From IMG/VR virus record IMGVR_UViG_2721755660_000004: 45,337 bases of DNA; one strand, 5' to 3'. Source of the stretch: a virus. Lineage: Duplodnaviria; Heunggongvirae; Uroviricota; Caudoviricetes. Shown here piece by piece: positions 21,001 to 24,000 of this stretch (position 1 is the first letter of the stretch; each line of letters begins with the position of its first letter). Position numbers: made by a program.

Positions 21001-24000
21001 GAATGCTGATTTAAATTGTTCATTCATGGCCTGCATGCAGGCGGTATATTTATGTTCATCGTTATACATTGCTAAATCCTCGACGGGAATTGTCAGATAT
21101 ATTTCAGCCATCAGGTAAAACACCAGTGCCCACCACTGGCGGGCTGAAGACTTAACATATCCAGGGATTCGGAACCGATAAATCCTGATAAATATCCATG
21201 AACACCAAAATCAAATACGGTCTGTCGGCTGCCGTTCTGGCGCTGATTGCCGCAGGTGCGCCTGCGCCTGAAATCCTCGACCAGTTTCTGGATGAAAAGG
21301 AAGGTAACCACACAACGGCATACCGCGATGGTTCCGGCATCTGGACCATCTGTCGGGGTGCCACGATGGTGGATGGAAAACCCGTTTTTCCCGGTATGAA
21401 ACTGTCGAAGGAAAAATGCGACCAGGTCAACGCCATTGAGCGTGATAAGGCGCTGGCATGGGTGGAGCGCAATATTAAAGTACCACTGACCGAACCACAA
21501 AAAGCGGGTATCGCGTCATTTTGTCCCTATAACATTGGCCCCGGTAAGTGTTTTCCATCGACGTTTTATAAGCGGCTGAATGCTGGTGATCGTAAAGGTG
21601 CATGCGAGGCGATTCGCTGGTGGATAAAAGATGGTGGGCGCGATTGCCGCATACGTTCAAATAACTGCTATGGACAGGTTATTCGTCGTGACCAGGAAAG
21701 CGCATTAGCCTGTTGGGGGATAGATCAGTGAGCAGAGTCGCCGCGATTATTTATGCTCTGGTTATCTGCATCATCGTCTGCCTGTCGTGGGCGGTCAATC
21801 ATTACCGTGATAACGCCATCGCCTACAAAGAACAGCGTGATAAAAAAGTCAGTGAGCTGAAGCAGGCGATCGCCACCATCGCTGACATGCAGCAGCGTCA
21901 GCGTGATGTTGCTGCTCTCGATGCAAAGTACTCGAGAGAATTAGCCAATGCGAAAGCTGAAAATGAAACTCTGCGCGCTGATGTTGCCGCTGGTCGTAAG
22001 CGCCTGCGGGTCAATGCCAGTTGCTCCGCAGCCGTGCGTGAAGCCACCGGACCCACCAGCGTGGATAATGCAACCAGCCCCCGACTGGCAGACACCGCTG
22101 AACGGGATTATTTCACCCTCAGAGAACGGTTGATGACGATGCAGAAGCAACTGGAAGGGGCGCAGGAATATATTCGCACCCAGTGCATTAAGTAGCCTTT
22201 TTGTTATCAGGAGAATGTATGAAGAAATTACTGGTAACCGCAAAGCTCTTTAATGGAAGAATCCCGTTCCGGATTTTACAGCGTTGTCGTGTTCTGGCTG
22301 AAGGTACATTCAGTGGTAAATGCACGGAATGTTATTCACGAATATATGAAGTGGATGCCACGGATGAAGATATAACCGTTGAGTGTAATGCCGGGATTGT
22401 ATCGGCCACATTGCTTCATGGGCGAATTGGGTTGTCGCAGGAGGATGCAAATGAATTACCAACTGGCAAAACTTTATCGTGGTAAACATTTCGCAGGGTA
22501 TGGGATTGCAGTTAATGGTGAGTTACTGGAAGGGCAGCTTTCCGCCAGGACAGAGTCACGCGGAGGCGAGCCACCAACCGTCACTGTGACTTTCAGACTG
22601 ACAGCAGAACATATCGAGAATCAGCCCGTCATTAAACTGAACAGGGTGTGAGGTATATTTATGCCATCACGAATCCCACGCGCCTGCCGTAAGCGTGGAT
22701 GTGCAGGTACAACCACAGACAGTTCTGGTTACTGCGATAAACATCGTGGCGAAGGATGGGTACAGCATCAACGCGGACTGAGCCGCCACCAGCGTGGCTA
22801 TGGCTCGAAATGGGATGCCATACGTGCGCGCATACTGAAGCGTGATAATCATCTGTGTCAGAACTGTCTGCGCAATGGACGAGCCGTTGAGGCCAGGACT
22901 GTAGACCACATTATCCCAAAAGCTCATGGTGGCACTGATGATGATTCCAATCTTGAGTCGTTATGCTGGGAATGCCACAGAGTGAAGACAGCAAGAGAAC
23001 ATATTCGATGATAATATTCACTGCTGTAATGCATAAAAATAGTTTCTACATTCATGCAGATACCCGGAAGGAATTTTGGGTTGTTTTAAGTAAAAAGCTG
23101 GGGTGGGGCAAATTTGAGTTAATTCGCCCCTCAGATGAGTTTAGCCCTACTGGAGGGTTGTTTGAATTAGTCGAAGTGCGTTCGGCAGATTCAGAGCCCC
23201 CTGAGTCAGTAACTGTAGGGTCAAATGTTTTATGGCGTCTCCCGGAAGCTCTCGGAGTTTTGAAATCAATCCCTTCTTCTGATCTTCAGGTATATTTGCA
23301 ACACGGATTATATCCTCAAGGGCAACAATCGTGTCATTGTGTAACCGAACGGTTTGAACTTTAAGGATCGCACTTAAGCCGCCATCATCAAGAAGAAAAT
23401 CAATTCCTTTCTCTGTAATGTTGCAGTACGGGGCATTGAAGATAAAATCAACGCCATCCATGGTATCGCTGCGTACGAAGGGTGTAGAAACGAGACCATG
23501 CATTTCAAGGTATAACATGCACGCCACAAAGTGATCATAGCTGTCAAATTTCTCAATAAGGTCTTGTTCCTGTGCCTTGTTTAAAGAGTTAGGAGCACAA
23601 TCTATAAGGGCGTTGAGGATTTCAAGTTGTAAGGTTCTGTCATATTTTCTGGTTTTATCCATTTCTTAGACTCCATCGTTTATTTATTGAGATTAACTGA
23701 AGACATCATGCTGAGCATCCTGATGGATGACCAGTATCTTCTTTTTGCGTGATTTCTTGCTGCCATCTTCAGGGGGGAGGGGGGGATCAAATCCCTGACG
23801 CCTTTCGCGCTTCAGGACCGCCGCCTGACCCTTCCTCATATCGCCGCAGGTTCGAAAACTTTTTTTTGGAAATGTGAACAAACGATTGATAGGTAAGACC
23901 GATTATGTCAGGACCTCCGAAAACCCCGCCACGCCTGCATTTGATTCGAGGCAACCCCTCAAAGCGCCCCGTTAAAGACCACAAAAAAACCGCTAAAAAG

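Follow-up and report, generated by a model that had tools for sequence, protein, structure and literature searches.

Our subject is a pair of overlapping genes, here called A and B, in a 45,337-nucleotide (nt) stretch of Caudoviricetes virus DNA held as IMG/VR record IMGVR_UViG_2721755660_000004; this whole stretch, the window in what follows, is an E. coli lambdoid prophage. Gene A (23147-23662, minus strand) begins with ATG and encodes 171 amino acids (aa), while gene B (23008-23364, plus strand) encodes 118 aa, its ATG overlapping the stop codon of the preceding HNH endonuclease gene in an ATGA. The two genes share 218 nt (23147-23364), in which the last part of B is antisense to the 3' end of A, and the comparative evidence shows both reading frames to be maintained by selection, with a strongly dual-constrained core at about 23147-23290 that corresponds to A residues ~125-171 and B residues ~47-94. 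We are very confident of this anatomy and of the dual coding. A sequence-only reading of the window had described A as a clean open reading frame (ORF) on the opposite strand, and in one sense this was right, as the ORF is genuine (by ORF finder, ribosome-binding site, homologues and purifying selection); it is not, however, solitary, since a conserved antisense gene also uses the 218 nt at its 3' end. B itself came to light when the DNA downstream of A was compared across genomic contexts and proved to have protein-like conservation on the opposite strand. The wider model that we discuss below, of a mobile two-gene moron cassette in which a lysogenic A and a lytic B oppose one another in the service of defence and self-immunity, strikes us as evenly balanced between right and wrong.

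The first line of evidence comes from stop codons. In the window, the B frame has 0 stops in the overlap and 8 in the rest of A; the same contrast is seen across lineages, where the overlap is free of stops in this frame and the remainder of A contains 5-12. When the count is limited to the final 129 nt of A, 16 lineages again show 0 stops in the B frame, and the other four non-A frames have 9, 33, 58 and 100. We then asked how often the B frame would stay open under a null in which the A protein is held fixed and synonymous codons are drawn from family usage, using an exact dynamic-programming calculation for 18 lineages. The probability of an open B frame over the observed overlap lay between 1e-4 and 3e-3 per lineage, and between 1e-4 and 3e-4 in the window, values that count for less than they might because the lineages are related, so that they cannot be multiplied and a summed probability overstates the significance. 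With an E. coli codon table, the less secure of the two nulls, the probability was at most 1e-2 per lineage, and the family-derived table gives the same result. At the level of individual codons, the window avoids an antisense stop at 18/18 at-risk codon pairs, and the isoleucine of the AIKHL motif is encoded by the rare ATA in all 48 motif-bearing sequences (among 63 unique ones), because ATT or ATC followed by AAA would create an antisense stop.

A second line of evidence is the rate of synonymous change. For diverged pairs, the proportion of synonymous differences (pS) in A beyond the overlap lies at 0.76-0.99 (it is 0.26 between the window and phage PhiR49_2, the closest pair, and 0.63 in one other), and in the last 54 codons it is 0.02-0.38 in 19/20 pairs, the exception being the window paired with a Proteus locus (L016), at 0.54, where the overlap is only 128 nt. 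Counted per A column, the fraction of synonymous differences drops from ~0.5-0.69 to 0.01-0.42 at residue ~125 and remains low to the end. B behaves as a protein gene in the part that lies beyond A, with pS of 0.54-1.02 in its first 45, non-overlapped, codons (0.12 for the closest pair) and a ratio of nonsynonymous differences (pN) to pS of 0.10-0.55. Nature also supplies a negative control in a Klebsiella-phage lineage that lacks B and has a diverged A C-terminus, where pN is 0.09 and pS 0.66 in the same region, which means that the protein is conserved there with its synonymous sites nearly unconstrained. In addition, when E. coli genomes were searched by our 'distant' blastn, all 18 matches listed, among 80 divergent alleles, were confined to 23151-23289, which is the dual-coding core. 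Beyond the Enterobacterales, Acinetobacter phages have an antisense ORF of ~101-104 aa in the same place as B, and here too the pS of A passes from 0.82 to 0.28 in the overlap, with pS of 0.63 and pN of 0.19 in the free part of the ORF. Aligned by hhalign with enterobacterial B, the antisense ORFs of Acinetobacter and Pseudomonas phages gave no significant similarity (E=0.054 and 0.16), and for Acinetobacter we therefore speak of a shared arrangement and not of proven homology. In the Pseudomonas phages the antisense frame is open for 215 nt, among sequences that are too similar for a divergence test.

Could B nonetheless be an untranslated artefact, with the constraint at the 3' end of A due to an RNA element, for instance a terminator or the target of an antisense RNA? 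Automatic gene prediction passes B over almost every time: it is absent from the RefSeq annotation, it was left unannotated by the Prokaryotic Genome Annotation Pipeline (PGAP) in the records checked, and a collection of 5.8 billion proteins contains just 65 calls of it; Pfam and PHROG searches gave no match to it. There is also a stable hairpin just 3' of A, a 10-bp stem-loop at 23105-23130 on the minus strand that lies 17 nt past the A stop codon, with TTTTT 8 nt later (23096-23092) and an RNA fold of -28.6 kcal/mol (z = -2.5), and which falls within the B codons for WGKFELIRP. Salmonella, Klebsiella and E. marmotae retain its stem, whereas GF-2 and Proteus do not, and we rejected the hairpin as a canonical intrinsic terminator because of this missing stem and of the 8 nt that separate it from its T-run; it may be a non-canonical terminator of A. 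However, an RNA element leaves unexplained both the frame-specific avoidance of antisense stops and the pN/pS of 0.1-0.55 in 45 codons outside A, no Rfam family was matched, and a confidently predicted protein fold spans the junction. In AlphaFold2 models, residues 1-70 of B form a small beta-barrel (predicted local distance difference test score, pLDDT, 81-90), and the last barrel strand, residues 49-58, is encoded inside the overlap. Among the rivals that we considered, an untranslated B is the least compatible with the data, and we regard it as highly implausible.

B is also widespread. A B-like ORF is present at 98 of 103 A loci, in ~40 distinct sequences of 89-119 aa that overlap A by 128-230 nt. 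As exceptions, one Klebsiella lineage has a frameshift and one copy is truncated, and at five distant loci a profile found no B-like ORF. The conserved core of the protein spans residues ~1-90, followed by a variable tail.

The sequence-only reading had proposed that A is cargo, and the comparison of related phages bears this out, as A proves to be an insertion that is missing from sister phages. In 11 related E. coli phages the flanking HNH and small terminase (terS) genes match and there is a gap in place of the cassette, so that the HNH-terS spacing is 147 nt in vB_EcoM-606R7 versus 893 nt in the window and the insert measures about 750 nt. Among the related phages compared, only PhiR49_2, from ECOR13, carries the same insert, and the terS-proximal ~140 nt are common to the window and the cassette-free genomes. 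On the pattern of its sequence, the pair has the features of a moron, being absent from close relatives between conserved flanks, on the opposite strand and with a promoter-like region and a hairpin, its autonomous transcription being putative. The same pair is found elsewhere: A occupies six or more other sites in temperate phages. The pair sits at the HNH|terS junction in E. coli, between Q and the holin gene in Salmonella and Klebsiella, between a Rha-like gene and the lysis genes in E. marmotae and E. coli, between the tape-measure gene and gpM in Proteus, and behind mnt in GF-2, with other loci adjoining Ant/BRO genes or tail genes. These comparisons show that A and B travel together between many insertion sites in the temperate phages of the Enterobacterales. 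Throughout, orientation is invariant, with A always antisense to the lytic genes and B always co-directional with them. In Acinetobacter phage AbIPP1, A is placed directly behind cI and shares its strand. The A gene of Edwardsiella phage GF-2 is coupled, by the overlap of its start with a stop codon, to a Mnt/Arc-like repressor gene that diverges from arc-ant. Pseudomonas phage D14P has A flanked by cro and a ydaT-like gene, in antisense to both and on the strand of cI. Homologues that lie behind cI or Mnt-like repressors, or antisense to lytic operons, lend contextual support to the earlier suggestion that this cargo is expressed in the lysogen. As a separate observation, in Klebsiella phage ST13-OXA48phi12.5 (locus L005, 4005-4979) an A without B adjoins a gene pair with DUF4065, a SocA/Panacea-type antitoxin domain, which gives the family a further neighbour of toxin-antitoxin character.

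The insertion site itself has a wider history. In two Arsenophonus prophages (L106 and L107, 2633-4565) the HNH|terS junction holds mazE-mazF (PemK) on the opposite strand, and the junction is therefore a hotspot of cargo exchange that can hold a toxin-antitoxin (TA) module too. These mazEF genes adjoin an 84-aa ORF, which we rejected as a full B homologue because only its first 37 residues, a remnant of the N-terminus of gene B, correspond; the locus suggests replacement of the cargo by recombination inside B. One might thus wonder whether A and B are themselves a TA-like pair, serving addiction or abortive infection, with either the partner protein or the antisense transcript as the neutraliser. 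Such a role would suit a small two-gene mobile cassette, it would put A/B beside the Arsenophonus mazEF and its B remnant, and the way in which the two genes converge and overlap at their 3' ends is reminiscent of type I TA pairs of prophages, for example txpA/RatA. Against it, neither gene matched a toxin or antitoxin family in Pfam, NCBIfam or PADLOC searches, neither product has a hydrophobic segment of the membrane-toxin kind, and each gene is seen intact beside a broken partner, which argues against strict toxin-antitoxin dependency. We consider the TA-like reading very improbable, and a type II module in particular was rejected, since A and B converge in place of forming a co-directional bicistronic unit and match no TA family.

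What kind of protein is A? The product matches PHROG 3983, which is labelled as of unknown function, over residues 5-171 against profile positions 2-164/165 (E=1.9e-57), and sequence, profile and structure searches found no match to a known structural or packaging family. A word-indexed search gave 180 homologues, and an exhaustive profile search gave 1,039 clusters at 50% identity (835 with an E-value under 1e-10), nearly all of 155-175 aa with end-to-end matches. About 2% of complete E. coli genomes contain a member of the family, which is also common in Salmonella. Three complete E. coli chromosomes (GB089, OkiPb01715 and N96) carry A at 100% identity to the window copy, under the PGAP label 'hypothetical protein' WP_000361882.1. 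The non-overlapped part of A is under purifying selection, with pN of 0.04-0.23 versus pS of 0.26-0.92 in pairs involving the window. Two records contain members of the family that their annotation passes over: in Halomonas phage vB_HboP_4908 (L007, 1763-2311) the homologue is missing and an opposite-strand ORF is called instead, and in Klebsiella phage ST405-OXA48phi1.3 (L112, 595-1065) the deposited record annotates nothing at the homologue.

An AlphaFold2 model of A, built on a 45-sequence alignment (mean pLDDT 79), has a YjcQ-like winged-helix domain at residues ~9-91 (pLDDT about 90), a conserved linker, G(I/V)DFxxDDGGLSA, whose invariant DFxxDDGGLSA part forms a hinge of low confidence, and a four-helix bundle at residues ~96-170 (pLDDT 64-79). 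The resemblance to the YjcQ and DUF2513 families is one of fold. Sub-threshold matches to them occur in 9/45 and 4/45 relatives of A, respectively (best E=0.005), and membership of Pfam YjcQ (PF09639) or DUF2513 (PF10711) was rejected because the gathering threshold was not reached; unlike A, these proteins (for example, YjcQ of the B. subtilis skin element, PDB 2hgc) are without the DDGGLSA linker and the four-helix C-terminal domain. For A itself, Pfam gave 0 matches at E<=10 and NCBIfam none beyond a single chance-level one (E=0.19), and we found nothing relevant in the literature on the function of DUF2513 or YjcQ, on WP_000361882 or on the A/B cassette, and no lead on A in text searches for DefensePredictor.

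Other identities were tried and set aside. The helices at residues 102-145 of A (23230-23359, minus strand), IIRVANIPEDQKKGLISKLRELP, resemble in sequence the B-domain of staphylococcal protein A (SpA), the profile resemblance concerning helices 2-3, and 7/45 relatives have sub-threshold matches to the Pfam family 'B' (PF02216). In a sequence-profile search of the PDB, however, the full-sequence E=1e-9 to SpA was inflated by the repeats of that protein, the per-domain i-E-values being 6-46. The Fc-contact residues of protein A, F13, Y14, L17, N28, Q32 and K35, are each replaced in the aligned A residues. Homology to the B-domain was rejected on these grounds and because A is cytoplasmic, and the resemblance is probably a convergence of three-helix-bundle patterns. 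The cytoplasmic assignment follows from the absence of a hydrophobic segment (the highest 19-residue Kyte-Doolittle window is 1.38, and neither A nor B has a segment above 1.4). It also makes A not Bor-like, and the serum-resistance role that the sequence-only reading had held out for assay is unlikely for a protein without a signal peptide or hydrophobic segment. The likeness to lambda Bor or the Iss lipoprotein was accordingly dropped as an identity and is positional only, there being no hydrophobic N-terminus and no match in Pfam or NCBIfam. In the same way, the absence of transmembrane segments led us to reject A or B as a membrane superinfection-exclusion protein of the P22 SieA or HK97 gp15 type; in GF-2, A occupies the position where P22 has sieA, and this likeness, too, is positional only.

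A winged-helix fold invites the idea of a transcription factor, as in the AbIPP1 record, where the A homologue is labelled 'transcriptional regulator', and a candidate site is at hand upstream of the gene. This is an ACTG-N9-CAGG dyad at 23719-23735 (minus strand), at -72 from the start codon of A, and in most distinct upstream regions the fuller form (T/C)ACTG-N9-CAGG(A)TG lies at -71/-72 from the A ATG and is followed by TAnnCT; in L071, L075, L093, L095 and L005 the dyad lies elsewhere within 52-77 nt, including at -74 and -52 in the B-less L005 and L095. Its arms are kept across lineages and its centre is variable, on a background rate of 0.74 per kb. On such a reading, A would bind the dyad for autoregulation or to control host or phage genes in the lysogen. 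Yet the winged-helix domain is acidic in 45/45 members examined (net charge -1 to -13, median isoelectric point 4.8), which is atypical for a DNA-binding domain and makes the AbIPP1 label doubtful, no Pfam helix-turn-helix family reaches threshold, and another factor could bind the dyad. A MarR/PadR-type factor was rejected, since A has neither a sequence-family match nor a basic DNA-binding surface, and we judge the transcription-factor reading as a whole to be improbable.

The dyad has its own rejected identities. Its left arm fits the TACTG of a LexA box, which was ruled out because the spacing from CTG to CAG is 9 nt, and not 10, in every lineage; nor does the consensus of FNR, FadR or IHF fit it. 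In the window as a whole, ACTG-N9-CAGG occurs 8 times versus 1.2 expected from dinucleotide shuffles (for example, at 22150, 29896, 30809, 38877 and 40884), and codon structure may explain this excess, as the copies are mostly coding; for the same reason we do not read the eight as a regulon. Nearer to A, an upstream alignment picks out a -10-like hexamer, TAATCT, at 23690-23695 (minus strand; TAnnCT across lineages), as a putative weak A promoter, and a Shine-Dalgarno GGAG can be read directly at 23671-23674 (minus strand), 8 nt upstream of the ATG.

No promoter is evident for B. In roughly half of its contexts the gene directly adjoins the stop codon of the late gene before it, and in at least 7 others a hairpin and T-run, which is to say a terminator, stands immediately before its ribosome-binding site; it would thus be reached mainly by antiterminated lytic transcription. 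At four loci (L048, L058, L063 and L065), and not in the window, a hairpin follows an A-run ~100-75 nt upstream of the A start, as a terminator on the B strand at which non-antiterminated transcripts in the B direction would end just past A.

From orientation and neighbours we are inclined to accept, as rather probable, a lysogenic-versus-lytic logic for the expression of the two genes. A would be transcribed in the lysogen, from its own weak dyad-bearing promoter or by read-through from cI or mnt, and B would be produced only by antiterminated lytic transcription that reads across it; as transcription in the lytic, B direction is antisense to A, the two would be mutually exclusive, by transcriptional interference and RNA duplex formation. 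As for what the proteins might do, A could be a lysogen-protective factor, for superinfection exclusion or defence, acting via protein contacts of its acidic winged-helix domain, and B a late-phase antagonist or self-immunity factor of the resident phage. This assignment of defence to A and self-immunity to B is speculative, and we hold it to be rather doubtful. Bolder still, and in our view quite unlikely, is a self-contained 'lysogeny-on / lysis-off' immunity module, in which A, produced together with the prophage repressor or in the same manner, would block the lytic development of incoming phages by means of its acidic winged-helix domain, and B, accessible solely to antiterminated late transcription, would switch A off twice, by antisense transcript and by protein, thereby sparing the induction of its own phage. 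Were this module real, interlocked coding would keep defence and self-immunity genetically inseparable in horizontal transfer.

A number of observations weigh against the cassette model. Some lineages have an A without any B (L005, L112, L095 and L007). Elsewhere, A is intact beside a frameshifted or truncated B (L020-23 and L097), or B is intact beside a frameshifted or 5'-truncated A (L108, L072 and L092), and because either gene can be lost alone the partnership is not obligatory in resident prophages. The tail of B past '...EVLKS' varies in length and the synonymous sites of A opposite it are unconstrained, so that only ~130-140 of the 218 nt are functionally dual-coding. A strict sigma-70 consensus scan found no promoter for A. 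The 5,027 defence models of PADLOC-DB v2, a set that excludes systems described later, gave 0 matches to A at E<=10, and the structure search returned no informative neighbour for the helical domain of A or for B.

The losses of one gene or the other, the B-less lineages (among which L005 carries a terminator of its own) and the unconstrained tail would all sit comfortably with a more modest account, in which A is a self-sufficient, lysogen-expressed accessory gene, B an unrelated small late gene, and their overlap a frozen accident, difficult to reverse and without regulatory meaning. What such an accident has to contend with is that the pair stays together across >6 insertion contexts and ~40 distinct alleles, that Acinetobacter phages have the same arrangement, and that orientation relative to the lytic operons is invariant. 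We think the frozen accident rather unlikely.

How does the cassette compare with systems that are already understood? In architecture, the nearest published analogue is the olg1/gene 10 pair of Pseudomonas phage Fc02, where olg1 (sie1), transcribed with the repressor in the lysogen, overlaps in antisense gene 10 of the lytic ner operon, and the products of both exclude superinfecting phages (Ramirez-Sanchez et al. 2023, PMC9936078). Like A/B, this is an antisense protein-coding overlap in a temperate phage, the lysogenic and lytic strands having been observed in Fc02 and inferred for A/B. In Fc02 the genes overlap completely, within the immunity region of a transposable phage, whereas A and B overlap only in part, 3' to 3', in a portable cassette, and the Fc02 genes have experimental support and little comparative evidence, the reverse of A/B. 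A tblastn search with A found no beetrevirus, and thus no sequence relationship to the Fc02 module.

Lambda bor and the other late-region morons, in the sense of the Juhala/Hendrix concept, offer a second comparison, Bor being a secreted outer-membrane lipoprotein. A is like bor in being an opposite-strand insertion in the late region, near the genome end or cos, that is absent from sister phages and has a putative promoter and a hairpin; it differs in its want of a signal peptide or hydrophobic segment, and, whereas classical morons are single transcription units, A and B form an antisense-interlocked pair. Closer to the proposed model in concept is BstA, the lysogen-expressed defence protein of Salmonella prophage BTP1 that Owen et al. 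reportedly described in 2021; its gene is said to lie next to the repressor, and its coding region to carry aba, a DNA element that spares the resident phage, the protein being of ~300 aa with a KilA-N-like domain. The correspondence has its limits, as aba is a DNA element and B an antisense protein gene; PADLOC, which presumably includes BstA, gave A no match. Convergent-transcription switches and 3'-overlapping type I TA pairs, such as pR/pL of coliphage 186, prgQ/prgX of pCF10 and txpA/RatA of B. subtilis, likewise consist of converging units whose overlap makes expression mutually exclusive, as is proposed for A/B. In those systems, however, one or both of the overlapping partners do not code for protein, whereas in A/B both strands encode a conserved protein over ~130-140 nt.

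Morons and antisense arrangements of lysogenic and lytic genes are thus of known kinds, and what is new here is the A family, its hidden partner B and the quality of the comparative evidence for dual coding. B is a conserved coding gene that is missing from the RefSeq and GenBank annotation of hundreds of prophages; gene callers reject long antisense overlaps. In bacteria and phages, few long antisense overlaps between protein genes are well supported, and such cases are often contested; A/B could serve as a reference case, combining as it does frame-specific stop avoidance, a sharp step in synonymous rate, natural B-less controls and many independent alleles. The silencing of prophage-encoded defences when the prophage itself goes lytic is an open problem, and the invariant orientation of the pair, with A aligned with repressors and B with lytic operons, provides a testable model for how lysogen-expressed cargo might be silenced upon prophage lysis. 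The A family, at ~1,000 clusters at 50% identity, is in addition a sizeable uncharacterised family that merits a functional screen.

The neighbouring genes are those that the sequence-only reading had named, as Pfam matches and RefSeq agree. Upstream of B lies the HNH endonuclease gene of the late operon (22661-23011, plus strand; PF01844, E=1.5e-16), its stop overlapping the B start, and beyond A lies terS, a Terminase_4 (P27-family) gene (23905-24387, plus strand; E=2.3e-25), with the large terminase gene beginning at 24387, directly after it. The stretch upstream of terS (23759-23904, plus strand), which includes a G-rich run, is present in cassette-free relatives too and marks the right edge of the insertion; by analogy with HK97/P27-type genome organisation, it would be expected to be the cos region. 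The placing of A antisense to the late operon and near this expected cos, in a position analogous to that of lambda bor, holds as first proposed. In L104, from E. coli KFu019, a close relative of the window prophage, a GNAT acetyltransferase gene lies on the opposite strand just upstream of HNH (222-707, minus strand). Finally, in the lysis region of the window, a 122-aa ORF with a GTG start (20755-21123, minus strand) lies between a 213-aa ORF (20104-20745, plus strand) and the lysozyme gene (21198); Pfam gave no match for either ORF, and the former may be a second moron.

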